Source of the DNA: an uncultured delta proteobacterium
GTDB lineage: Bacteria > Desulfobacterota > Binatia > Binatales > Binataceae
NCBI GenBank assembly: GCA_963711565.1
Contig: CAVQEQ010000003.1
Span: 640,001 to 704,000, forward strand
Length of the DNA stretch: 64,000 nucleotides
Direction of reading: 5' to 3'
Below, in pieces: positions 45,659-59,116 of the stretch (position 1 is its first letter; each line of letters opens with the position of its first letter). The notes beneath the pieces are model-generated. The model had not been told where the DNA came from. It saw nothing but the letters and a program-made list of their open reading frames with translations, and searched no databases. The position numbers and the translations under genes are program-made.

Positions 45659-46015
45659 ATGCCGAAAGCCAAACCTACCAGCAGCACCCTGATGGATCTC
45701 GAATGGGCCCGGGTCTATGCGGACCGGATCAAGGACGAGCTGAAGCTGATCGCCAAGACGCTCTCAGACCTAAACGCGCACGCGATGCATCCGCATCTCG
45801 TCAAGGGCGCGGTGGCGTTGAAGGCGCAGATGAAAGAGGCCAGTCAGCAGGTTGGCACGATGAGAAAAATCGCGGGCCAATACGAATCCAACTGGATGAA
45901 CACGATCAAGAAGGCGCTGGCCAGGAAATATCCCGGTTTCAACGACGGTAAACCCGGGCGAGCTGCGCCGTCAACAAAAAAAACGGCGAGATCGCGGCCC
46001 GCGCGCAAATCTTAG
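45659..46015 (+). CDS. Hypothetical basic helical protein (118 aa)
   Basis: ATG at 45659, coding-like codon usage, helical core with a Lys/Arg-rich tail. Confidence 0.7.
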   Translation: MPKAKPTSSTLMDLEWARVYADRIKDELKLIAKTLSDLNAHAMHPHLVKGAVALKAQMKEASQQVGTMRKIAGQYESNWMNTIKKALARKYPGFNDGKPGRAAPSTKKTARSRPARKS

Positions 46016-47529
46016 GAGTTGCCAGGCCACCGCCCCGGGTCGGGACAGACAATCTTCTGCGCCGCCATCGGATTGGAAACCTTGGTCGGGTCGTTGCAGG
46101 CTGAGGCCGAATCGGGGTGGCCGGCGGCCTCATTTTCGATATCCGCAAGCATGCATCGGAACTCGGGATCGTTCTTGAGAAGAACGCAGCCCATGTTGAT
46201 CAGCGCCTTCACTTGATCGGACGGTAAGTCGAAGTTTGTGCCGATGCCGTAAAAATCCTGGCGCACGCGTGGATCGGGAATTGCCTCGAAGCTGAGCTCG
46301 ATCACGTACGGAACGGGGGCATGAAGTTTCAGCTTTCCTCCCGATTGTGCGCTGACCTCCTCGGCTTGCTTCAACTCGTCGGCCAACTCGTTTGTGAAAT
46401 CGACAGTGTCAAAGCTGTAGTTGTCCATCGCGATCGTTGCGGTAGCCATCGCGACCGTCGGGATGATGTGCGGCGTATGACGGCTGTTGCTGATCGTGTC
46501 GTTCGACTGCGTTCTTGCATTCACGGCGATGACTACGAGGCGGTCGATATCGGGAATGTTGCGACTGATGAAGCCGTTGCTTTGTTCGTATGCGTTGATG
46601 ATCGATCTAAGTCCTATGTTGTCCGCGAGGCCCCCGTCCATCAGATGGACGTACGGATGAGGCGTATCGACATAGGCTAGCTGGGCTTGCGACCAGTAAT
46701 AGCGGCTGCGATTGATGTAGTAGTCCTGTAACCCGGTCTGATATTCGGTCAACACAGGGAATCCTTGAAGCGGCTGATAGTTCTCCAGCGTTATAGGACT
46801 AAGCAGGAACGGAAAGGCCGAGGATGCGGCCACGGCGCGCGCAACCGGGTAAGGACCCAGGTCGGAACCTATCAAATCGAATTGATCCTGGGTGAATGGG
46901 AATCGATTACCCGAACCGATATTGGTCGCGTTGAAAATTACGAACGGACGGCGCTTCTGGCTTATCAACAGGTTGTAGCTCGAGTGATCGAACAGAGCGT
47001 CGTCGTACATATCGGCAGCCAGATCTATTCTGCTGTAGTAGGGAGACAGCAGCCAGGGCCAGTTCCATGGAGAGAGAGCCTTGAGGAGAAGGCCGCCTTC
47101 GATGTTGCGATAAAGGAAGCGGCTCTCGAAGTCCTGGAAGATCCTGTCGTGATAAAGAGCGTAGTATGCGGCAGGAAAAGACCCGCCGGAGACCGATGAG
47201 ATGCAATCCACCTCGCCCAGCAGATTTTCGCCCTTGTGCGGCCAATCGATGTGCGTTTGACGCAGCGCCAGCATCGCACCATAGGCAAGCGCGGCAGCCC
47301 GCGTGCCGCCGCCCGAGAACGCCAGGCATACAAAAAGCTTGTTCTCGTCCTTGCCGCCTGCCAGGTTTTCGAACCTATAGCCCTGACCGTCGCCACCCGC
47401 AGTGGGAAGCTGATCGGTGCGCAATTTTGTGGTCGCCGTCGCGCACGAAATTGCAGCTATCGAAAGACATAGCGAGGCGAATCGCACTATGCCGGAGCGC
47501 CAGCTTGGGAGGCACTCGACGGCGCTCAT
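46012..47529 (-). CDS. Patatin-like phospholipase, probable lipoprotein
   Basis: SGGGTRAAA oxyanion loop, SSVSGGS nucleophile elbow, DGG catalytic Asp, and signal ending AISC. Confidence 0.9.
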   Translation of the reverse strand: MSAVECLPSWRSGIVRFASLCLSIAAISCATATTKLRTDQLPTAGGDGQGYRFENLAGGKDENKLFVCLAFSGGGTRAAALAYGAMLALRQTHIDWPHKGENLLGEVDCISSVSGGSFPAAYYALYHDRIFQDFESRFLYRNIEGGLLLKALSPWNWPWLLSPYYSRIDLAADMYDDALFDHSSYNLLISQKRRPFVIFNATNIGSGNRFPFTQDQFDLIGSDLGPYPVARAVAASSAFPFLLSPITLENYQPLQGFPVLTEYQTGLQDYYINRSRYYWSQAQLAYVDTPHPYVHLMDGGLADNIGLRSIINAYEQSNGFISRNIPDIDRLVVIAVNARTQSNDTISNSRHTPHIIPTVAMATATIAMDNYSFDTVDFTNELADELKQAEEVSAQSGGKLKLHAPVPYVIELSFEAIPDPRVRQDFYGIGTNFDLPSDQVKALINMGCVLLKNDPEFRCMLADIENEAAGHPDSASACNDPTKVSNPMAAQKIVCPDPGRWPGNS

Positions 47530-47753
47530 GATTGTGTAATCTTGCTAAAATAAATTTCGCAGGGTTGGAGCACCGTCGTATTATCCAATTGGATCCCGGT
47601 AACTCCCGGCGGCGCGTAGTCCGATGGCGGCGCGAGCGAGATATCATAAGTACCGGCTTCAAGCATCAGAATTTGGTTGGTCATCCATGCTCCGGGCGCA
47701 GAATTTACTATCACGCCGCGATCTTCATCGAACCAAACAATCAGGTATTCCAC
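47526..47753 (-). CDS. Small hypothetical beta-rich protein (75 aa)
   Basis: GTG start with GGAG RBS. Stop overlaps the patatin ATG (ATGA). Confidence 0.65.
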   Translation of the reverse strand: MEYLIVWFDEDRGVIVNSAPGAWMTNQILMLEAGTYDISLAPPSDYAPPGVTGIQLDNTTVLQPCEIYFSKITQS

Positions 47754-47861
47754 GCAGGTCTCCTATCGGGCCCCATGCGATCGAACTATGCGCAAATTCC
47801 GACCTATCGGACCGACGGCTTCAATTCTAAGTGAGATTCAAGTGCGCCGGGCGGCGTCATC

Positions 47862-48347
47862 CTAGCCAGACTGGAGCATCTGCCATACTGCGCTGAAAGC
47901 CTGCTGGACGACCGCTGCGTCGATCTGATCACATTGCACATTCACTGTCGCGTCTGTGGACAGATCGCCGGAATAGGACTTGCCGTCAGGGTAAGCCACC
48001 GTCAGTCCCGCACCGCAGAGCGCATCGGTGGCCGGATCCGCCATTTGGAGATACTCCTGATTTTCCGGGCCTACCGCGATCTCGACGATTTTCGTCTTCG
48101 GCGGAATATCAGGATCTGCAACTCGTTCGATCGTGTCGAAGCCGGCAGCCACAAACCCTGCTCTTACCCGCGGAGCGTTAGCCGGATCGCATTGGACTTC
48201 CAGTGAACCGCCGTCCGCCACGTCGCCTCGCGACGGTAGACCGCCCGGGAAGGGCTGCGTTAGGCCGGCCCCGCATATTGCGGTGGCCGCAATTCCGGCG
48301 AGTTGGAGATCCATTTCTTTGTCGCGGATTACCGTAAGAATCATCAT
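47862..48347 (-). CDS. Hypothetical protein with internal two-fold repeat
   Basis: AAGGAG RBS before ATG at 48347. Two copies of CGAGLT..xP.G....GD......VQCD. Confidence 0.75.
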   Translation of the reverse strand: MMILTVIRDKEMDLQLAGIAATAICGAGLTQPFPGGLPSRGDVADGGSLEVQCDPANAPRVRAGFVAAGFDTIERVADPDIPPKTKIVEIAVGPENQEYLQMADPATDALCGAGLTVAYPDGKSYSGDLSTDATVNVQCDQIDAAVVQQAFSAVWQMLQSG

Positions 48348-48443
48348 TTTGCGACTCCTTCGCCCAGTTTGAACAGATCGGCGCCGCGCGGTGACCGTTT
48401 GTAAGAATGCCCTATCAAATGGGCAGGCGAGCGCCAATCGATA

Positions 48444-49376
48444 TCAGATGGAAGCGGGCCTGAGACCGTTTTCTAGGAAGGGAGTTTCGCGGCGGCGGGC
48501 GATTTCGAACAGCGCTACCGCGGCGGCGACCGATACGTTGAGCGAGCCGACTTTGCCGCGCATCGGGATGTCCACGACGAAGTCCGCGCCCTTCCTGACG
48601 ATGTCGCGGACGCCGCGCCCCTCGGAACCGACGATGATCGCGAGCTTGCGCGAGGTGTCGAGCGCGTAGATCGATGTCTCGCCGCCGGGCGCGAGCGCCG
48701 CGGTCCAGTAGCCCGCCTCCTTAAGTTGCTCGATCGTGCGCGCGACGTTGCCGCATCGCGCGATCTTCAAATGTATCCACGCGCCGGCCGACGACTTGAC
48801 CGCCGCGGGCGTGATGCCCGCCGTGCGGTCCTTGGCGATCACGATCGCGCCGACGCCGGCGCCTTCCGCCGATCGCATCAGCGCGCCCAGGTTGCGCGGA
48901 TCGGTGACGCCGTCAACCAGCACGATCGGGTCGGGCTGATCGGCGAGAATCTGTTCGAGCGTCATGTATTCGTACTCGCGCATCAGAGCCGCGATTCCCT
49001 GATGGCGCGCGGCCGGTCCCGCGAGCCGCTCCAAGCCGGCGTCGTCGGCGAACTCGACGCGGCCGCCGCCGGTTCTGACCAGATCGATCTCGGCTGAGAA
49101 GCGCCGCTCATCGCCGGATTTCACATAGAGCACTCGAATCGAGGCGGGCGCCGCGGCGACCAGCTCGCGGATCGGCTCGACGCCGTAAACGATCTCGCGA
49201 TCGTTGCTGCTCGTGCGACGCGGCTCGCGCGCGTCAGCGTCGGGGCGTCGATAATCGCGCGCGGGGGCCGGCGCTGGCGCGGGTTTGGGCGATGATGCAG
49301 GCGAATCCCGTCGTGGCGGACGCGGTGCGTTGCGGTTGAAGCGCGGATGGCGGTCCTTGTCGCGAAAGTCTCTCAT
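48444..49376 (-). CDS. rlmB: 23S rRNA G2251 2'-O-methyltransferase RlmB (TrmH/SpoU family)
   Basis: HQGI, DGVTDPRNLGA, GSEGRG and IPMRGKVGSLNVSVA. Likely start at 49376. Confidence 0.93.
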   Translation of the reverse strand: MRDFRDKDRHPRFNRNAPRPPRRDSPASSPKPAPAPAPARDYRRPDADAREPRRTSSNDREIVYGVEPIRELVAAAPASIRVLYVKSGDERRFSAEIDLVRTGGGRVEFADDAGLERLAGPAARHQGIAALMREYEYMTLEQILADQPDPIVLVDGVTDPRNLGALMRSAEGAGVGAIVIAKDRTAGITPAAVKSSAGAWIHLKIARCGNVARTIEQLKEAGYWTAALAPGGETSIYALDTSRKLAIIVGSEGRGVRDIVRKGADFVVDIPMRGKVGSLNVSVAAAVALFEIARRRETPFLENGLRPASI

Positions 49377-49419
49377 TGGAGGCGATAGTAGCAGAGCGGC
49401 GCGCGAGTAGCGCGCAGAA

Positions 49420-49466
49420 CGCGGGCACGGCGGCCCGCGCCACTTGGAAGGACGGCCCGCGCCACT
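49420..49466. repeat. REP-like element copy 2 plus a partial tandem copy
   Basis: CGCGGGCACGGCGGCCCGCGCCACTT, then CGGCCCGCGCCACT again at 49453-49466. Confidence 0.75.
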
Positions 49467-49510
49467 GGAAAGAAATCCCCCGCCGCTGGGAAGGAGTTTC
49501 AATCTCGCGT

Positions 49511-51817
49511 CTATGACGCGGCGCGGGCGGGCTCCGGTTCGGCGTTGGTTGACAAAGCCGGGCCTCGCCGGAGGTTTGCGTAGGTTTTGAGTGCGGCGAT
49601 CACGAGCGGCACGACGCCGAGAAAAATGAAGATAAGATCGCCGGGCAGCCGCGCCCATTCGAGCGAGTGCATCAGCGTGCTGTGTCCGAACGCTTCGCTG
49701 CGTGCGTGCCAATAGCCGTTCTGCAGCACGTCATAAAGTTGCAGCACGCCGCCGGGGAACAGATTGGTAACGATCATCAGCAGGAGTCCGAGGTTCAGTC
49801 CTACGAACGAAACCCGGATGTATTTTTCAGTGTCGCGCCAATCCTCGTCGGAAGAGACCTGCCGAAAGGCGAAGACCATCAGCGCCACCGCCAACATTCC
49901 GAACACACCCATGAAGGCGGCGTGCGCGTGATTTGGCGTGAGCATGGTCCCGACCTCGAAGTAGCTCACGATCGGCATATTGATAAGGAAGCCGAACACG
50001 CCGGCGCCGACAAAGTTCCAGACTCCAACCGCCATCAGGAAGTAAAACGTCCATCGATGCGGCACGGAAATATCCTCGCCGCAGGTATCGCATCGCCCCT
50101 GGGTCAGCGCGATGAAATCCCACGCGTCGAGCGTCAGCAGCGTGAGTGGCACGACCTCCATCGCCGAGAACACCGAGCTCAGCGCCATCGCAATCTGCCC
50201 CTGGCCGGTGAAGTACCAATGATGCCCGGTGCCGATGATCCCGGCGCCGAGATAAAGCAGCGCGTCGAGATAGACGACGCGCGCGGCGGTCGTGCTCGAG
50301 ACGATTGCGAGCTGATAGAAAATGATCGCGACCGCGCAGGTGACGAACAACTCGAGAAAGTTTTCGACCCACAGATGGATGATCCAGAATCTCCACAGAT
50401 CGACGATCGTGAAGTTGGTCGCGGTGTTGTAAAAGAACGCGGGCACGTAGAAGACCGGAATCGTGACGGCGGCAGCGATGAAAAGCCATGAAAGCTCGCT
50501 CGATTCGTGGCCGCTAAGCCGCGGCGCGATCGCGCGATAGAGGAGCACAACCCATAGCGCCAAGCCCGCTGCGAGCATCATCTGCCACGCGCGTCCCAGG
50601 TCCAGATACTCCCACCCCTGGTCGCCGAACCAACTCCAGAATCTGCCGAACCATTGATGTACTCCGGCGAATTCGCCGAGCAGGCTGCCGACGACGACCA
50701 GTACCAGCGCCGCGAACAGGACGTTCACCCAGCGCGCCTGCCCGCGCGGCTCCGCGCCACCGATGACCGGCGCGAGGAACAGTCCGCCGGCTACATAGGA
50801 TGCGGCGATCCAGAAGATCGCGAGCTGCAGATGCCAAGTGCGCAGGATCTGGCTGGGCAAAATCGCCGAGAGATTAAATCCATAGAAGCTGCCGGAGTTG
50901 GCGCGGTAGTGCGCCGTGCCGCCACCGACCAGGGCCTGCGCAAGGAACAGCAGCGCAATCACCGCGAAGTACTTGATAGTTGCGCGCTGACTCGGCGTCG
51001 TCACACCGGCGAGCATCTTAGGATGCACATGCCCGCGCTGCCGGCGCCATCCAAGGAAGTCGAAGCGGCCGAATGCGAACAGCACCGCCGCAGTCGCGCC
51101 GAGCAGCGTGATCACGCTGAGCGCGCTCCATAGCACCGCGCCGCTGGTCGGCAGATTGCCCGCCGAGGGATCGTAGGGAAAATTGTTGGTGTACGAGTAG
51201 TTCAGTCCGGGCCGGTTCGCGACCGAAGCCCACGCCGCCCACGCGAAGAACGAGGTCAGCTCGCGCAGTTGAGCGGGATCGCTGATGTAATCGCGCGGAA
51301 GGCCGGCATCCTGCGACGGATTGGTGAAATATGCCGTCCATAAAGCGATCTGATGCTGATAAGAAGCGGCTTCCGCCTCGGTGAACGTGAGAGTCCCGGA
51401 GGCCGGGTCGTAGCGATTGCGCTTGAGCATCCGCGTGACTTCCGCGTTGACGATCAGGCGCCGGTTCGGCGCAATCTGCGCCGGCATCACGAAGCCGTGG
51501 CGTTCGCTGACGGTCTGTTCACTGTCGATTGCGAGCGTGTGCAGATACTGGGCCGAAAAATCGGGGCCGAGATAGGCGCCGTGTCCCCAGATCGTGCCGT
51601 TCTCCATCAAGCCGTAGCGCAGAAAGACCTGTTGACCGGCGGCGACATCGGCGGCGGTGAACAATACCGCTCCGTCGGGGCCGACGACACGTTCAGGAAT
51701 CGGCGGCGCGTCTGAGTAGGTCAGCTTCGCGAGCCATCCGAGCACGCAGAAGCACACAACGATCGTGACAATCGCGCAGCGTCGCCACCAGGGTGAGAGG
51801 GTTTGATCGTCAGGCAT
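49511..51817 (-). CDS. norB: Quinol-dependent nitric oxide reductase (qNOR, NorZ type)
   Basis: GTIWGHGAYLGPD, YTNNFP, RTWHLQ, HLWVENFLE, GTGHHWY, NHAHAA and RLPGD. 768-aa single subunit. Confidence 0.95.
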   Translation of the reverse strand: MPDDQTLSPWWRRCAIVTIVVCFCVLGWLAKLTYSDAPPIPERVVGPDGAVLFTAADVAAGQQVFLRYGLMENGTIWGHGAYLGPDFSAQYLHTLAIDSEQTVSERHGFVMPAQIAPNRRLIVNAEVTRMLKRNRYDPASGTLTFTEAEAASYQHQIALWTAYFTNPSQDAGLPRDYISDPAQLRELTSFFAWAAWASVANRPGLNYSYTNNFPYDPSAGNLPTSGAVLWSALSVITLLGATAAVLFAFGRFDFLGWRRQRGHVHPKMLAGVTTPSQRATIKYFAVIALLFLAQALVGGGTAHYRANSGSFYGFNLSAILPSQILRTWHLQLAIFWIAASYVAGGLFLAPVIGGAEPRGQARWVNVLFAALVLVVVGSLLGEFAGVHQWFGRFWSWFGDQGWEYLDLGRAWQMMLAAGLALWVVLLYRAIAPRLSGHESSELSWLFIAAAVTIPVFYVPAFFYNTATNFTIVDLWRFWIIHLWVENFLELFVTCAVAIIFYQLAIVSSTTAARVVYLDALLYLGAGIIGTGHHWYFTGQGQIAMALSSVFSAMEVVPLTLLTLDAWDFIALTQGRCDTCGEDISVPHRWTFYFLMAVGVWNFVGAGVFGFLINMPIVSYFEVGTMLTPNHAHAAFMGVFGMLAVALMVFAFRQVSSDEDWRDTEKYIRVSFVGLNLGLLLMIVTNLFPGGVLQLYDVLQNGYWHARSEAFGHSTLMHSLEWARLPGDLIFIFLGVVPLVIAALKTYANLRRGPALSTNAEPEPARAAS

Positions 51818-51980
51818 TGCGACTCCTTGTTCTGCGGTGAGTTCGAGAGACCGAACACCTTCGCCTTCGCGCGATAAAGCAGGTCGATGCCGTTCGGAAC
51901 TATGTAATCTAAAATCGCAAGTTTCAATCGCTCGGACGAATGTCTAAACTTGGTTGCTGCATTCGGTCCGGATCGAAACA

Positions 51981-53171
51981 ATGAGACTGGCAATTCCAGG
52001 GTTTGCGATTATCGATCGCTACGTCGCGCGCGAAGTGCTCGCGCCGTTCGCGGTTGACGTCGGCCTGCTGACCTTCGCGCTGGTCACCGGCAAATTGCTC
52101 AAGCTGATGGACATGGTCGTCAATCACGGCGTCAGCCTCGGCGAGGTCTGCGGGATAATCGGGTACATCATGCCGGCCTTTCTTGAGCTGACGTTTCCGA
52201 TGGCGGTGCTGCTCGGCGTGTTGATGGGCTTCGGGCGGATGTCGAGCGACCAGGAGATGACCGCGGCGCGCGCCTGCGGCATCAGCCTGTACCGGCTGGC
52301 GGTGCCGGTGATGATCGTGGCGCTGGGGGTGTACGCGATTTCGAGCTACTTCGCGTTCTCGCTGCGGCCGTGGGCGAATTCCAATCTGCGCAACAAGCTC
52401 TACGAGCTCAGCCAGACCCGCACGAGCGCCGGGTTGAAGGAAAAAATCTTCAACAGCAATTTTCCCGGCCTGGTCGTTTACGTTAACGAGATGTCCGACA
52501 CCGACTCGAGCATGAAGGGCGTCATGATCTCGGACGCGCGCGATCCGCATAACCAGAACACGATAATCGCCAAGCGCGGAGCGATGATCCCCGATACGAA
52601 GAACAAGTCGATCACGCTGCGGCTGTTCGACGGCTCGATTTTCGGGGTCGAGCCGCAGGACAACTCGACACACGTCACCAGCTTCAAGACCTACGACCTC
52701 AGCGTCAATTCCGAGGAGTCGCTCGGCGTCGCCGACGTGGAGCCGGACGAAATGACGTACGCGGTCCTGCGCGCCGATATCGCAGCCGCGCGCGCCAAAG
52801 GCAAGCCGGACTACGACGCCGAGACCGAGATGGCGAGCAAGTTTACCGTCCCGTTCGCGACGATGCTGTTCGCGCTGCTCGGTATCTCGCTCGGCTTGAA
52901 GCCGGCGCGCGGCGGGCATTCGGAGCGCTTCGGCGTGAGCGTCGCGCTGTTCTTTCTTTATTATTCGCTGATGCGCGTGGGCGAGACGTTGGCGCAGCGC
53001 GGACGGCTCAACTCTTGGATCGCGATGAGTATCCCGGACATCGTGTTCATGGCGCTGGCGTTCTGGTTCTTCTATCGCGCGGCGTCCGACAGGGCTGACC
53101 AGGGGCGCGGCCCCGGCGACATCATCTGGGACCTGGTCGAGCGTTACGAACGCAGCAGGCAGGCAGCATGA
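51981..53171 (+). CDS. lptF: LPS export ABC permease LptF
   Basis: IIDRYVAREV and GRMSSDQEMTAARACGIS, 3+3 TM layout, paired with lptG. Confidence 0.9.
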   Translation: MRLAIPGFAIIDRYVAREVLAPFAVDVGLLTFALVTGKLLKLMDMVVNHGVSLGEVCGIIGYIMPAFLELTFPMAVLLGVLMGFGRMSSDQEMTAARACGISLYRLAVPVMIVALGVYAISSYFAFSLRPWANSNLRNKLYELSQTRTSAGLKEKIFNSNFPGLVVYVNEMSDTDSSMKGVMISDARDPHNQNTIIAKRGAMIPDTKNKSITLRLFDGSIFGVEPQDNSTHVTSFKTYDLSVNSEESLGVADVEPDEMTYAVLRADIAAARAKGKPDYDAETEMASKFTVPFATMLFALLGISLGLKPARGGHSERFGVSVALFFLYYSLMRVGETLAQRGRLNSWIAMSIPDIVFMALAFWFFYRAASDRADQGRGPGDIIWDLVERYERSRQAA

Positions 53172-54268
53172 GACTTCGACCGCGCCTGTCGCCGGTGATG
53201 GATCGCTTTATCGCGGGCCAGTTCTTCGGCCCGTTCATGGTCTGCCTGGCGGCGTTCACGGCGGCCTATCTGCTCGGCGATATGTTCGATCGGTTCGACG
53301 ATTTGATCCGCTACGGCGGGCTAGGACTGTTGGGCCTCGAGTACTTCGCGCTCAAGCTGCCGCTGATCGTCTCGCAGGTGCTGCCGGTGGCGTGCCTGGC
53401 CGGCGTGCTGCTCGGCTTCGCGCTGCTCAATCGATCGGGCGAGGTGCTCGCATGCCAGCAACTCGGTATCAGCCGGCTCGAGATGGCGGTGCCGGTGCTG
53501 CTGGTCGCGATTTTGATTTCGGGTTTCGATTTCCTGATCAGCGAGACCGTGGTGCCCGCGGCGACGCGCCAAGCGAAGTACATCTACTCGGTGGAACTCA
53601 AGAAACGTCAGCTCAGGGCGATGTTCGCCAACCGGCGCATCTGGGTGCGCGTGCGCGACGGCTTCGTTTCAGTCGACAGCTTCGACAAGAAGCAGGAGCT
53701 GCTGACGGGAATAACCCACTACCAACTCGATGGCGCGTTCGGGCTTAAAGCCCTCGAACATGCGGCGAGCGCACGATGGGACGGTCACAATTGGGTCGAG
53801 GTGGGGGAGAATTCCTACCAGGTCGCCGAGGGCGGCGTCGTGACCAAAACCGGCGCCACGCAACTCGAGCTCGGATTGACGCCCGCCGATTTCGGCCTGC
53901 TGCGCTTCGACCCCGAGGAGTTCAGCCTGTGGGAGCTCGACCGCTATATCGCGGACCTGCGCAGCAAGGGGCTGGACCCCGGCGGCTACGTCGTCGATCG
54001 CGATTTGAAATACGCGATGCCGCTGGCGTGCGTGATAATGGTCGCGCTTGGGATGGCGCTCAGCCTCGATCCGCTGCCACGTAACATGAGTCTCGGCCGC
54101 AGCTTCGGGCTGGCAATCGTGATCGGCTTCGCCTATTGGACCGCGTTGGGAATCACCTCGGCGCTGGGCCGTTCAGCTCTGCTGCCGGCGGTGGTCGCCG
54201 CGTGGATTCCGAACTTCATGTTCGCGATGATCGCGATCGCAATCTTCCTGTTCGGCGAAGAACGCTGA
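53168..54268 (+). CDS. lptG: LPS export ABC permease LptG
   Basis: LNRSGEVLA..LGIS and AAWIPN. Translationally coupled to lptF. Confidence 0.9.
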   Translation: MRLRPRLSPVMDRFIAGQFFGPFMVCLAAFTAAYLLGDMFDRFDDLIRYGGLGLLGLEYFALKLPLIVSQVLPVACLAGVLLGFALLNRSGEVLACQQLGISRLEMAVPVLLVAILISGFDFLISETVVPAATRQAKYIYSVELKKRQLRAMFANRRIWVRVRDGFVSVDSFDKKQELLTGITHYQLDGAFGLKALEHAASARWDGHNWVEVGENSYQVAEGGVVTKTGATQLELGLTPADFGLLRFDPEEFSLWELDRYIADLRSKGLDPGGYVVDRDLKYAMPLACVIMVALGMALSLDPLPRNMSLGRSFGLAIVIGFAYWTALGITSALGRSALLPAVVAAWIPNFMFAMIAIAIFLFGEER

Positions 54269-54294: not shown

Positions 54295-55179
54295 TCAGTT
54301 GTGCGTATAGGTCATCGAGAATCCGACGTTCACGGTATTCGTTGGCACGAGAGTCGGATCGGCGTACGCGATTACAGTTGCATATGCGCCGGCGGGAACG
54401 CCCGTGTTGCTCCCAGTGGCACTGCATTGCACCGCCGAGTCGGCAATCGAGCACAGGCTGGCGCAGCTGAGCAGACTCAAATCGGGATTGAAGACGCATA
54501 TCTCGAAATCATAGGCTCCGCCCAATCCCGGGTTGGAACTGATCAGTGCCTGAAAATGTCCCAACACGCCGCCCGCGTTGCCAAAAAGGCCGCCAAGCAG
54601 CGGCGTCAACGCAATGTTCAGAGGTTTTGCCGGTGGTGGCGAGAGGGGAGTAGCAGCGGCAAATGATACGCCTCCGAATGGCATATAAAGCCCGTTGGTG
54701 GGGAGCGTGTTGAGGGGGGTCAACTGAGCGACTTGAAATTCGGCAACCTTTGAGCCCTGTGTGCCTCCCGTAAGCATCACCGCGTTAACGGTATTGAGTC
54801 CGTTGATACCAGAAGCCCCCGCCACGCCCATTGATCCCGGGGCCCCCGTCGGTCCGACTGGGCCGCGAATTCCCTGCGGTCCCTGTGGCCCTGTCACTCC
54901 CCCCAAACCTACAGTTCCGACATCGCCATTTGGACCTTGCGGTCCCTGCGGCCCGGTCGGTCCTGTCGGTCCCGTAGCTCCTGCCGGTCCGATATTCACC
55001 CAAGTCAGCGAGGTCTGATCCGGCTCGCAGGCCGTGTTAATGCCCTTTATGAGACCCTTTTTGGTGACGCAAATCGAGGTCGTCTGCGCGCGCGCGCCTG
55101 ACGGGAAGACGAGCGCAATGATTGCACTCGCCGCCATCGCTCCCAGCCATATCAGTGCCTTGCTCTTACAATAACTCAT
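54295..55179 (-). CDS. Secreted collagen-like protein (22 Gly-X-Y triplets)
   Basis: AGGAGG RBS before ATG at 55179. Signal peptide, Cys-pair N-domain, uninterrupted GXY and Cys-rich C-domain. Confidence 0.9.
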
Positions 55180-55259
55180 GCCCAAGGTCCTCCTGCGGTT
55201 GCGCCTCGGGTTTGCGAACTGCACGTCGAGTCGATCGCCTTGAGCATCCATCGCTGCCC

Positions 55260-56078
55260 TCACTGCATGGCCAGATTGAGCGACCAGGTGACCTGCGCCA
55301 AACCGTCCCCCGATGTATCTGTAGTGGAGGTTTGTATCGTCACTCTGTCACCCTGGTTGATCTGAATGACGTCCTCTATGTCCTCGCAGGCAAAATCGCC
55401 CGCTGCAATTGTGCATGTCACGGGCGTGCCACCTGCGGGGCAAACGTCGTTGACACACACGTCAAAAGTGTCGGTCTGACCCGCAGGCGGCGGGTTATCG
55501 ACAAGGATTGCCAGGTTCGTGAGCGATCCGGCGGGCAGGGGGGTACTTTCCGAAGCGAGTGAATTTGTATCCGAGACAGAGCATGAATTGCTGGGGCCCA
55601 GATAGCCGTTAAAGAACGGCATCACACACCAGGCCCCCGTTATGTACGTGGCATAACTGCTTCCGGTAAGCGTAGCGAGATTGTCGCCTGTGGTGCCGAC
55701 GGTGCCTGGAGTCCCAGGCGTGCCCGAGGCGCCGACCGGGCCTTGCGGACCTTGACGGCCCTGCAACCCTGTCGGTCCGGTCATACCAATCGCACCTTGG
55801 GGACCTTGCGGACCCAGCGGACCCTGCGCACCCGTCGGACCTTGCACACCCTGCACTCCGATCGGGCCGGAGGGTCCGGTCGGTCCCTGGATGTTCCATG
55901 TCAGGTTGACCTCCAGGAATTTGCAGGGAACGTTGATGCCGGAGATTTTTCCCTTCCGGCTCACGCAAATCTCGATTGGTTGTGACTGGGCGCTTACCCT
56001 CGAGGCCATCGCCATCGAGGTCGCGGCAGCGAAAATCGCAAGGAGCACCGGCCGCGATTGCCTAATCAATGCGAGCAT
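55260..56078 (-). CDS. Secreted collagen-like protein (23 Gly-X-Y triplets)
   Basis: GGAGG RBS before ATG at 56078. Same architecture as its neighbours. Confidence 0.9.
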
Positions 56079-56145
56079 CGTGGTCCCCTCCCGTTCGTTA
56101 GGCATTCGAATTGATCCTTCAGAGCCTTCGCCAGTTCCTCGTCGA

Positions 56146-56979
56146 TCACGGGCTCGACTGGGTAACGGTGTGTTCGAGCGAGTAGGTAACGTCGGTAGAA
56201 TTCGTGCCGGTGGTGGCACGCCCGACGATGGCGACCCGGTCGCCGTCATTCACGCTCACGTTGTCGATTGTGTCGTTGCAACTGGTGGTCGGATCGTTGA
56301 TGGTGCATGTCAGCGGCGTTGAGCAGTTTTCATTCACGCAGAGAACGAACACGTAAGAGCCCGTGGTGTCGCTGGGGCTGCCGGGATTCATGTCGGTTTG
56401 GACCAGCAACTCGCTGAGCGTTCCCGCCGACACCGGCACTTCGACGTTGGCGAGCGTGGTATCGGCGCCATTGCCGGGACCCATGTACAAGGTCTTGTTC
56501 CCGGGACTGCCCATGCCGCCAAGCACCAGGTTGAAAGCGAACCCCACGTCCTCGCCCGACGTTCCTCCAGCGATTATCTGAGTGTTAGTCCCATTGAGGC
56601 CGGCAGCTCCCAAAGCGCCCGTCGGACCCTGAACTCCCATCGGTCCCTGTACGCCAGTCAGACCCTGCGGTCCCTGCGAGCCGGCAGGTCCGACAAAACC
56701 TTGCGCTCCCGCCGGTCCGGTCGGTCCGATACTTCCCACGGCACCGATAGGTCCCTGCAATCCAATGGGGCCGGTCGGGCCCTGGACTCCAGCAGCATTC
56801 CAGGTGAGCGTCACCTGCGGCTTGGTGCAGGCGATGTCGATGCCTTTGATTCTGCCTTGCCGATTGACGCAGAGGGTGATGGTTTGGCCGGAGCTTGACG
56901 GTACGACAGCCGCGAGCATCGCGATACCTGCCGCGGCCGAAAGAGCAACCCGCAGTCCACGGCGTACTAAAGACTGCAT
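56146..56979 (-). CDS. Secreted collagen-like protein (23 Gly-X-Y triplets)
   Basis: GGAGG RBS. Same architecture as its neighbours. Confidence 0.9.
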
Positions 56980-57181: not shown

Positions 57182-59116
57182 TTACTTCCGCACGCCGCGC
57201 CTTACCGTCCTTGTCGGCGGATCGATCTGATTGCCGACGATCGCATTGGTGATGTCGAAGCATCCGGCGTCGCCGTCCGGGTTCCTGAGTATCAGCGCGA
57301 ACGGCCCATCACCAAGCGGCGTCAAGTCGACACCTGTGAACTCAAGGTTGATCGTCCATTCCCCACACGCCGGTGCCGCCGGCGTCGGCAGCTCGACCAT
57401 CCTGACCGTGAGGTTCTCGGGTGGATCTATAGAGGACAGAGTTCCATAGATCTGGTGATTGACCGTCTGTACCGCCCAGGAATTCAGAAAAAACCCTATT
57501 GCGTCAGGGCCAGACGCGGCACAACTGCCCGGCTCAATAGCTACATCGATGCCATTGAACGGATCATCGCCCGCGTCGCAGGCCGGGAAGCCAAGCTCGG
57601 TGAAGGTAAACGACGTGTTGAGCAGATTTCCGGATGGAGTACTCGAATGGACTATCTGCAGCCTCTCGCCGCTCGCTGAGATCACAATCGGCGTCGTTTG
57701 CAACTCGAATGCACCGGCGTCGCAGAAGTTGGGATTGCCGGGGTCTGGGCGCGGGAAGCCGCGCTGGTCGGTCGTCAGCTGCATCGGCGGCGATTCCTGG
57801 TCGGTGCAATCGAGGACCGGAATAAAATGGACAGCTTCGCTATCGTCTTCGAGCGCGATGGTCTGGGTCGGTCCGCCGTTGTTCTGCAAGCCCGCCGGGT
57901 CCAGATTCAGAGTCGTGCTGCCATTGATGCTCTTACCGCTGGGCGCCTCGGTGAAGTCGCACGAGGCGTCATCGGAGATGTTGTAGTCCGCGTCGCCAAT
58001 CGGGCCATCGCAGTTCCCGCCGTCTGGTTCGGCGGCCAGAATCGTGCCCTTGAGCGTTGCAGTAGCGCCGTTTCTAATGCCGCCGCCGCCAGTACCCGCG
58101 CTGTTGCCGGAGAACGTGCTGTTGGTGACCGTCAGCTTGTCGAAGTTCGCAATACCGCCGCCGATGTCGCCAGCGCCGTTGCCGGAGAAGGTGCTGTTGG
58201 TGACCGTCAGCGCGCCGTCCTCGTTCGCGATGCCGCCGCCTTGGCTCGCGCTGTTGTCTGAGAACGTGCTGTTGGTGACCGTCAGCTTGTCGAAGTTCCC
58301 GATGCCGCCGCCAACGTCGCCAACGCCGTTGCCGGAGAAGGTGCTGTTGGTGACCGTCAGCGCGCCGTCGTTGTCGATGCCGCCGCCTTCGTTCGCGGTG
58401 TTGCCGGAGAAGGTGCTGTTGGTGACCGTCAGCGTGCCGCCGAAGTTCTCGATGCCGCCGCCGCCGCCGTGAGCGCTGTTGCCGGAGAACGTGCTGTTGG
58501 TGACCGTCAGCGTGCCTACGTTCTCGATGCCGCCGCCCTCACCGGCCAACACACTGTTGCCGGAGAAGGTGCTGTTGGTGACCATCAGCGTGCCGCTGTT
58601 GTAAATGCCGCCGCCGTTCTCGTCAGAGGTGCGGTTGTCGAAGAACGTGCAGTTGGTGACGGTCAGCGTACTGGTGTTCTCAATGCCGCCGCCGTTGCCG
58701 CCGGGGAATGAGCCGTCGGCAATGGTCAAATTCTGCAAGAGCGTGGCACCCCCGCCCACCTCCATAACTTGCACGTTGCCCCCGCCGCTGATCGTGATGC
58801 CCGGCGCGCCGGTCGGCCCGGTGATGGTCAAGTTGCTATCGGTAATCGTAGGCAGGGTGCTCTCCAGCGTGATCGTGCCGGTGAGGCCGGGCTCAAACAC
58901 GATGCTGTCGGTCCCGCTGCCGGCCGCGCACCCATTGGTTGCCGTCATGCTGTTAGCCGCGGTGATCGCGTCGCGCAGGATGCAGATGCTTGTAGCGCCG
59001 ATATCGCTCAGGCTTGTCACCGTGATGGTGTTAGCGCGCGCCATCCCCGACATCACCAGAAACAAAACCGGCAGCGCAACTGCTGCGGGCGCAATGCGTC
59101 GAATTCGATCTGCCAT
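57182..59116 (-). CDS. Secreted beta-helix repeat surface protein (CSLREA-like N-terminus, GGGI/FxxN repeats, choice-of-anchor-Q-like domain)
   Basis: Signal peptide, CILRDAITAAN, about 8-9 GGGIxN..LTVTNSTFSGN repeats, and LQNNGGPTQTIAL...TDQRGFPR...CDAGAFE. Confidence 0.85.
   Translation of the reverse strand: MADRIRRIAPAAVALPVLFLVMSGMARANTITVTSLSDIGATSICILRDAITAANSMTATNGCAAGSGTDSIVFEPGLTGTITLESTLPTITDSNLTITGPTGAPGITISGGGNVQVMEVGGGATLLQNLTIADGSFPGGNGGGIENTSTLTVTNCTFFDNRTSDENGGGIYNSGTLMVTNSTFSGNSVLAGEGGGIENVGTLTVTNSTFSGNSAHGGGGGIENFGGTLTVTNSTFSGNTANEGGGIDNDGALTVTNSTFSGNGVGDVGGGIGNFDKLTVTNSTFSDNSASQGGGIANEDGALTVTNSTFSGNGAGDIGGGIANFDKLTVTNSTFSGNSAGTGGGGIRNGATATLKGTILAAEPDGGNCDGPIGDADYNISDDASCDFTEAPSGKSINGSTTLNLDPAGLQNNGGPTQTIALEDDSEAVHFIPVLDCTDQESPPMQLTTDQRGFPRPDPGNPNFCDAGAFELQTTPIVISASGERLQIVHSSTPSGNLLNTSFTFTELGFPACDAGDDPFNGIDVAIEPGSCAASGPDAIGFFLNSWAVQTVNHQIYGTLSSIDPPENLTVRMVELPTPAAPACGEWTINLEFTGVDLTPLGDGPFALILRNPDGDAGCFDITNAIVGNQIDPPTRTVRRGVRK
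58075..58700. repeat. Coding tandem repeats (about 70-75 nt period)
   Basis: Recurring GTTGCCGGAGAA(G/C)GTGCTGTTGGTGACCGTCAGC, encoding beta-helix rungs. Confidence 0.85.

Follow-up and report, generated by a model that had tools for sequence, protein, structure and literature searches.

Three adjacent collagen genes of matched length in Binataceae: a probable bacterial heterotrimer with a C1q-like head

Introduction

Could a bacterium build a collagen from three different chains? The question is raised by a 64,000-nucleotide stretch of DNA (hereafter the window) from an uncultured delta proteobacterium of the family Binataceae (assembly GCA_963711565.1, contig CAVQEQ010000003.1, positions 640,001 to 704,000), which encodes three adjacent collagen-like proteins, A, B and C. 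A mixed ABC fibre would be unusual, since bacterial collagens have been described as assemblies of three identical chains: prokaryotic collagens are called homotrimers in PMC8968730, and PMC7743900 mentions heterotrimers solely as a general possibility. The consulted portion of PMC11923368 contains nothing on bacterial heterotrimers, and among the papers listed by literature searches (mainly open papers, supplements aside) we found neither a demonstrated natural bacterial collagen heterotrimer nor a paper on a Binatota collagen.

An original prediction, made from the letters of the window alone, held that the three chains co-assemble into one triple helix with a heterotrimeric head. This proposal is supported by helix lengths that co-vary in 36 loci, by the loss of seven triplets at the same register in each of the three genes, and by a model of the A+B+C complex. 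Judged on these sequence comparisons and models, A, B and C likely assemble, one of each, into a single exported ABC collagen trimer, whose head is predicted to be mixed and TNF/C1q-like.

Three putatively secreted chains of one architecture

Genes A, B and C lie in that order on the same (-) strand, on contig G000:C3 of a 4.84-Mb genome (G000); all features given for them are on this strand. Gene A (P0001, 277 residues; 56146..56979) consists of a signal peptide (residues ~1-31), an N-domain (32-63; 56791..56886), a Gly-X-Y tract of 23 triplets (64-132; 56584..56790) and a C-terminal head (133-277; 56149..56583). Gene B (P0002, 272 residues; 55260..56078) comprises a signal peptide (~1-30), an N-domain (31-64; 55887..55988), 23 triplets (65-133; 55680..55886) and a head (134-272). 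Gene C (P0003, 294 residues; 54295..55179) comprises a signal peptide (~1-31), an N-domain (32-63; 54991..55086), 22 triplets by Gly-X-Y count (64-129; 54793..54990) followed by the triplet TVN, and a head that extends to residue 294. As starts of B and C we chose the ATG behind a Shine-Dalgarno-like run, GGGAGGGG in the 67-bp A-B spacer (56079..56145) and AGGAGG in the 80-bp B-C spacer (55180..55259). The signal peptides were assigned from sequence (a basic N-terminus, an apolar core, and small residues before a Gln), and the core of that of B lies below the 1.6 mark of the Kyte-Doolittle-19 scan.

The common architecture that had been proposed for the three co-oriented genes was confirmed by the Gly-X-Y counts, the N-domain pattern and the cysteine pattern of the heads. 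In each chain, the N-domain is ~32 residues long, contains two cysteines and ends in LTW (C-V..G.I.GI...C......LTW; C37, C51 and LTW60 in A), and three residues separate the Trp from the first Gly of an uninterrupted tract. The 22, 23 and 23 triplets counted earlier, in coordinate order and from three residues past the Trp, hold with one refinement: A, B and C all have a span of 78 residues between the Trp and the TGG motif at the start of the head, because the Gly-less triplet TVN in C sits at the position of the 23rd triplet of A and B. The X positions of the tracts are mainly Pro, and the Y positions mainly Gln or Thr. The collagen family PF01391 matches the tract of A at E 2e-8 and that of B at E 8e-10, and all three chains match it at 34-39 bits, against a Pfam cut-off of 27.2, with no Pfam match to other parts of the chains.

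The heads, of 139-165 residues, share a cysteine pattern in all three chains, and the GDRV motif that had been seen in two of them is restricted to A and B. Pairwise identity among the window heads is 23-33%, which, beside spans of 78/78/78 residues, bears out the strong divergence of heads at near-fixed helix length that had been remarked upon. The mature chains contain 6, 8 and 6 cysteines, even counts that fit intra-chain pairs. No membrane or wall anchor is evident, as had also been stated: the three chains have no membrane segment after residue 35 (Kyte-Doolittle-19 maximum 1.0-1.5), and a motif scan of them identified no lipobox, Tat or LPxTG motif.

We infer that A, B and C form an operon. 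A sigma-70 promoter scan returned 0 sites against 1.0 expected; terminator-like sites numbered 4 against 2.7 expected, none within the A-B or B-C spacer. A six-frame scan of the 4.84-Mb genome for Pro-rich tracts of at least 10 triplets returned only six, those of the window trio and of a second trio (G000:C2:147772-150878; L001:7785-10882), which has 30/28/29 triplets and the same end domains and belongs to the main Binatus lineage. By this scarcity, the window trio stands above chance.

Three chain types in fixed order across Binataceae

We investigated the distribution of the trio with a head-domain profile of 53 rows, for which match lists were complete and G018 was left out of the family count. 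Of 164 genomes of the family, 46 had a match to the profile; in the remainder of the class, 2 of 24 genomes did. The A-B-C cluster was found in 37 of the 164, as 39 clusters (two each in G000 and G174); the other profile-positive genomes were two in which it was cut by contig edges (G029, G178), six with single genes only, and one with weak matches but no collagen where the locus was examined. No collagen was present at the locus examined in G159, nor at L133. The A-B-C cluster is typical of Candidatus Binatus/Binataceae, with relatives labelled Candidatus Binatus sp., Binataceae or uncultured delta proteobacterium, one labelled Acidiferrales, and one distant single gene labelled Spirochaetia. 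The genes flanking the trios differ between loci, indicating that the trio moves as a unit.

All 39 clusters contain one gene of each type, in fixed order and on the same strand, two of them (G005, G176) with an extra C-type gene. Within the main Binatus lineage, the A, B and C heads resolve into three clades (support 100/99, 100/98 and 100/96; tree of 73 rows), each of which covers several length classes. In a tree of 75 rows, A, B and C of the window are each sister to A, B and C, respectively, of G184 (support 91, 97 and 96), a locus of 30/30/29 triplets. Orthology within subfamilies is position-specific.

These data bear on the possibility that the chains combine without fixed partners (AAB, ABC, BBC and the like) into a combinatorial set of heads, for which any mixture would need chains of equal length. 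Such mixing would account for the locking of lengths described below, and for the equal length of the extra C-type genes of G176 and G005. It sits badly with the retention of three position-specific types and their order in all 39 clusters, with the fact that both extra genes are C-type, and with window heads that are merely 23-33% identical, and we regard it as very unlikely.

Helix lengths change together

Helix lengths were measured in 36 of the 39 clusters, 33 by script and 3 by hand, with four loci, frameshifted within one helix or directly behind it, measured in DNA. Outside this set stand G005, G010, G036, G029, G178 and three metagenome contigs; G005 and G010 are split over two contigs (30/29/incomplete plus a 28, and 51/incomplete/50.3 triplets). 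The survey for gene triplets with co-varying Gly-X-Y lengths, as earlier proposed, was run on these 36 loci, and the lengths co-vary between 18 and 86 triplets, an almost five-fold range. Examples, as A/B/C, are 20/18/19, 23/23/22, 29/27/28, 30/28/29 and 36/36/36 and, among longer helices, 44/44/43, 46/46/45, 54/54/53, 60/60/60 and 86/86/85. In 36/36 loci, the three helices differ by no more than 3 triplets. Over 11 length classes, which are partly linked by kinship, the spread averages 1.1 triplets, compared with 29.9 after permutation of the chains, and 0 of 100,000 permutations were equally tight. Independently varying lengths, together with variable gene number, had been named as what would speak against co-assembly; the lengths co-vary, and the gene number is not strictly three.

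The match is closer still in the span from the Trp to the head. A and C differ by at most 1 residue in 36/36 loci and are identical in 29; all three chains lie within 1 residue in 26/36 and are identical in 12/36 (for example 78/78/78, 141/141/141, 171/171/171 and 267/267/267).

Three independent homotrimeric fibres could also come to equal length if an outside ruler, such as the thickness of the envelope or of a capsule, set their reach, and co-transcribed surface fibres might share such a requirement. This seems highly improbable given the match at residue level and the indels at the same register, and because trios of unlike length coexist in one genome: 23 and 30 triplets in G000, and ~19 and 44 in adjacent trios of G174, matched within each trio and unmatched between trios.

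Relatives often differ in length by 7 or 8 triplets, which is close to a single superhelical turn, and in four long loci the top internal period is 8 triplets in 10/10 unshifted chains, with a sequence of its own in each chain (weakly so in A of G008). We rejected a quantisation of lengths in whole superhelical turns (7-8 triplets), as the best period of ~8 was matched by 14% of jittered nulls, and by 12% when the longest class was left out; the periodicity is thus not significant and serves as a lead only. In one locus (L063:6241-8986, G036), the cysteine-bearing N-domain is missing from all three chains and the helices, of 27/24/25 triplets, are more loosely matched.

Equal losses at the same register

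A metagenome scan with the head of A identified four loci, three of them near-identical contigs of one close relative (L131) and the fourth a chance match without collagen. The close relative has 30/30/29 triplets, spans of 99/99/99 residues, and heads 84, 90 and 88% identical to those of window A, B and C. Relative to it, every window chain is short of one block of 63 nucleotides (7 triplets), placed after triplet 8 in A, 9 in B and 8 in C (near-best placements 5-12, 8-9 and 7-10). The three blocks are mutually unrelated, with 3, 5 and 2 of 14 X/Y residues in common. Three unrelated indels of equal size are thus found at the same height in three genes.

The unrelated blocks speak against the idea that recent triplication, or gene conversion among the tracts, to which tandem paralogues with repetitive tracts are in general prone, produced the matched lengths as a side effect. 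The A, B and C clades are older than the length changes, and X/Y sharing between paralogous tracts is 0.27 (87 pairs, best of 7 shifts, maximum 0.47), compared with 0.58 (289 pairs) when tracts of the same position and length are taken from different genomes. We consider this explanation refuted, with next to no probability left to it.

The head is a likely TNF/C1q-like jelly-roll

The head of A was modelled as an all-beta jelly-roll with a predicted local distance difference test score (pLDDT) of 93. The top Foldseek rows are 4-1BBL, ExsFA, C1ql1/3 and Cbln1 (E 3e-4 to 3e-3; template modelling (TM) score 0.35-0.58), and ExsFA, BxpB, F-BclA, BclA and C1q are among the fold matches. A comparison by VIA with 4-1BBL gave Z 8.1 and a root mean square deviation (rmsd) of 3.1 A over 114 residues, a score within background, equalled by the unrelated jelly-rolls of a protease and of a phage cement protein. 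The top Foldseek matches belong to the C1q/TNF superfamily, whose fold had been expected, and the likeness is modest (VIA Z of ~8 within background). On the model, the head is likely a TNF/C1q-like jelly-roll. No C1q, TNF or BclA_C sequence profile of Pfam or NCBIfam matched at E<=0.1, and neither head nor N-domain has a name in Pfam, NCBIfam or PHROGs (one PHROG at E 0.009). In the ESM Atlas, the head leads to unnamed viral clusters (0.89-0.91) and the N-domain to collagen-bearing clusters (<=0.89), both of which we treat as leads only.

The head profile identified 5,918 homologues among 1.84 billion representatives. Of the best 150 of these 5,918, 112 are collagen-free single chains with exactly three copies of the head; the rest have six copies (5), two (4), four (1), seven or eight (or nine) (2), or one (26, 19 of them with collagen). 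The ranking by whole-protein score favours repeats, yet would not favour three over four or five. These triplicates (P0015 and 111 others) are proteins of ~400-440 residues with three tandem heads, some fused to LamG, beta-helix or other domains; those tested have no Pfam, NCBIfam or PHROG name, and one relative is labelled Saccharibacteria.

One single-chain triplicate models confidently (pLDDT 92, predicted TM score 0.89), and its first Foldseek matches are single-chain trimers of Cbln1, C1q, APRIL-BAFF-BAFF and adiponectin (E 3e-9 to 7e-7). These superpose poorly as wholes (TM 0.23-0.25, rmsd ~21 A), and VIA aligns single domains only. As a whole, the triplicate does not superpose on a C1q-type arrangement (TM ~0.24), which would fit either an opposite order of domains around the axis or a different packing.

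A complex model of A, B and C

The complex was modelled from the last five triplets and the heads, with 21-row alignments made for the purpose, which lie outside the calibration of the tool. A+B+C scored 0.89 against 0.20 for the best of 3 controls and passes the mark of the tool; 116 of 157 solved complexes also pass it, as do 2 of 215 mismatched pairs. The runs agree in at least 91% of contacts, with partner pLDDT of at least 82. The contacts of least error join the GPGNG and VP motifs of A to the TGG motif and last strand of C, and the modelled interface holds 6 of the 10 (nearly) invariant head columns of the family. The pass carries no information on the homotrimers AAA, BBB and CCC.

Weighing a mixed trimer against a bundle of homotrimers

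Several observations weigh against an ABC trimer. The complex may owe its pass to a resemblance to solved collagen and TNF/C1q trimers, and close cousins also pass the tool (10/12 colicin pairs in calibration). Two loci (G005, G176) carry four genes, and six family genomes (G006, G015, G024, G185, G138, G139) have single genes only, so that heads of this family are very likely able to form homotrimers. Six loci have a frameshift in one of their chains, which falls within the helix or directly behind it in four of them and in the head in two, and deeper A/B/C orthology between subfamilies lacks resolution in the 75-row tree. The B span is 3-15 residues longer in 10/36 loci, all of it in a linker before the head that is not Gly-X-Y, and helix interruptions occur in one chain, or at differing places, in G009, G033, G063, G079, G177, G179 and G182. 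The three window helices show no salt-bridge register code, being nearly uncharged (0.01-0.03 Lys plus Arg per triplet); a charge-pair register code was dropped as a candidate, since the helices are almost without basic residues.

The kink of C1q has a chain-specific basis, and the unaligned interruptions are compatible, by analogy, with a C1q-like kink. In the C-type chains of L060, L042, L100, L101, L102 and L044, an interruption stands 11-12 triplets before the head at any length (29-60), possibly a conserved one-chain kink.

These same observations bear on a further alternative, in which three homotrimers are tied side by side through their N-domains into a bundle or bouquet that requires stalks of equal length. 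Length co-variation alone cannot tell such a bundle from a mixed helix; single-gene relatives share the N-domain and head, and both the unaligned interruptions and the longer B linkers would be accommodated. The match is, on the other side, finer than a bundle should need, as the residue counts agree exactly and are kept equal in C by a triplet that lacks Gly, and each chain is short of its 7 triplets at the same register. The single chains in which heads are naturally fused contain exactly three diverged copies, the A+B+C model passes, and the chains have no unpaired cysteine for cross-linking. We consider the bundle unlikely, and retain the ABC trimer.

Comparison with known systems

The closest analogue is C1q, which has a heterotrimeric helix and head, A-B and C-C inter-chain disulfides, and an 18-chain bouquet (PMC5902488). 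Both systems comprise three paralogous chains with an N-terminal cysteine-bearing segment, a collagen stalk and a C-terminal jelly-roll head of ~140 residues. Unlike C1q, the window chains have no sequence-level C1q family match and modest fold scores, no unpaired cysteine for A-B or C-C links, nothing indicating an 18-chain bouquet, and Y positions that are mostly Gln or Thr rather than Pro, and the stalk length of Binataceae trios varies almost five-fold between species. By analogy, the trio would work most like C1q; by sequence it is not a member of the C1q family.

The layout of collagen genes in triplets is itself already published for Pasteuria ramosa, in which PCL genes form co-oriented triplets of fixed order, one from each of groups 1-2-3, duplicated as units (PMC13233619; bioRxiv 10.1101/2025.03.22.644704; further sources in 10.1101/2024.02.09.579640 and PMC10329263). 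PMC13233619 terms this layout apparently unique to P. ramosa, and the word 'Trimer' is absent from the main texts of these four papers. The Binataceae trios resemble the PCL triplets in having one gene of each of three types in fixed order on the same strand. They differ in occurring in a Binatia lineage, rather than in an endospore-forming parasite, and in chains with signal peptides; the precedent concerns gene layout.

Spore collagens of the BclA type combine a GPT/GPQ-rich stalk with a C-terminal C1q-like head (PMC12357932), and for the heads of BclA1-3 of C. difficile no heterotrimers were predicted by AlphaFold 3 (PMC13188886). The window chains share a GPT/GPQ-rich bacterial collagen stalk and a likely TNF/C1q-type C-terminal head with BclA, F-BclA, L-BclA and ExsFA/BxpB, but, in contrast to the homotrimeric BclA family, have no BclA_C or exosporium-leader match. 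Likeness to Scl1/Scl2 and to Legionella Lcl is confined to the Gly-X-Y tract (NCBIfam matches of 32-43 bits against cut-offs of 325-500); these systems have one gene instead of three, and the window chains lack their LPxTG or membrane anchor.

Proposed assembly and its significance

We propose that each chain would be exported by Sec, with its paired cysteines presumably oxidised. The three heads may then choose one another through the conserved GPGNG/VP surfaces and those of the TGG motif and C-terminal strand. Trimerisation domains nucleate zipper folding in other collagens (PMC8968730), and the heads could likewise nucleate a zipper running to the N-terminus, where the three small N-domains would close the far end of the rod, as a clamp or a docking knob. 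With both ends clamped, a change of length in one chain would have to be matched by the other two, giving matching at residue level. At a collagen rise of 0.29 nm per residue, the product would be a rod of ~20 nm (15-74 nm across relatives) with an asymmetric head. Its job is the weakest step of the explanation: the likeliest, as a tentative suggestion, is adhesion, or recognition of a glycan or surface ligand, with the N-domain docking to a surface partner.

Taken as a whole, it is probable that the ABC collagen of Binataceae is an obligate heterotrimer whose mixed head resembles that of C1q, and which dispenses with the chain-selection machinery of animals, is clamped at both ends, changes length in lock-step at the same register, and draws on a head family that is also fused into single-chain pseudo-trimers.

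If the ABC trimer is real, heterotrimeric collagen and the C1q-like three-gene design arose in bacteria too, and the trio would give heterotrimeric collagens a scaffold of natural bacterial origin that has no anchor and in which the identity of each chain is defined. The system is small, with chains of ~250 residues, no anchor and few Y-position prolines, and its natural length variants (23 and 30 triplets, at 84-90% head identity) allow direct tests in E. coli of how chains are selected, staggered and matched in length. The heads could become chain-selecting modules for recombinant human heterotrimeric collagens, and an ABC assembly offers a concrete structural view of the Pasteuria PCL triplets.

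Neighbouring genes, RNA-library cover and variant loci

RNA-library contigs included pieces of A, B and C for runs X1 and X2, pieces of B for X3 and pieces of C for X4, most of them with identities of at least 99%. The runs had been selected with the trio stretch, three of them hold small shares, and the contigs give neither strand nor level; the cover is a weak hint that the trio is expressed. The stretch 46002-54005 had no cover in the four runs at 97% likeness.

Beside the trio, lptF/lptG are convergent neighbours, 26 bp away, and a co-oriented gene directly upstream (57182-59116, (-) strand) encodes a secreted protein of beta-helix repeats that carries a choice-of-anchor Q domain. This beta-helix gene is absent beside the trio of the close relative L131, whose flanks are, we presume, a moaA-like gene and an acyl-CoA dehydrogenase-like gene. 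Elsewhere, glycosyltransferase, YfhO/PTPS-related, PMT_2 or sugar-methyltransferase genes lie beside trios (L102:6416-9374, L103:7086-8537, L042:552-1979 and L109:9319-13916), and the Thr-rich stalks may possibly be glycosylated by enzymes of such flanking genes.

Variant arrangements were identified in individual genomes. Two complete trios of unlike length (~19 and 44 triplets) stand back to back in G174 (L103:2-6120), and in G176 the trio has a duplicated C-type gene of equal length (L104:6627-11136). G010 contains a trio with the same N-domain and 21/21/21 triplets in which the heads are beta-propeller-like (L046:5930-9914; Trp-to-head spans 68/71/68); among 165 family genomes this propeller-headed trio occurs only in G010, and unmatched pairs are present in G124 and G122. 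G006 contains three large collagen genes of several tracts each (L039:5422-14999; 30+62, 30+51+11 and 74+43+40 triplets), which are not length-matched and have no Trp-ending N-domain. Unrelated to the trio, the window also encodes, by Pfam match, a patatin-like phospholipase (46012-47529, (-) strand) and a NorB-type nitric oxide reductase (49511-51817, (-) strand).

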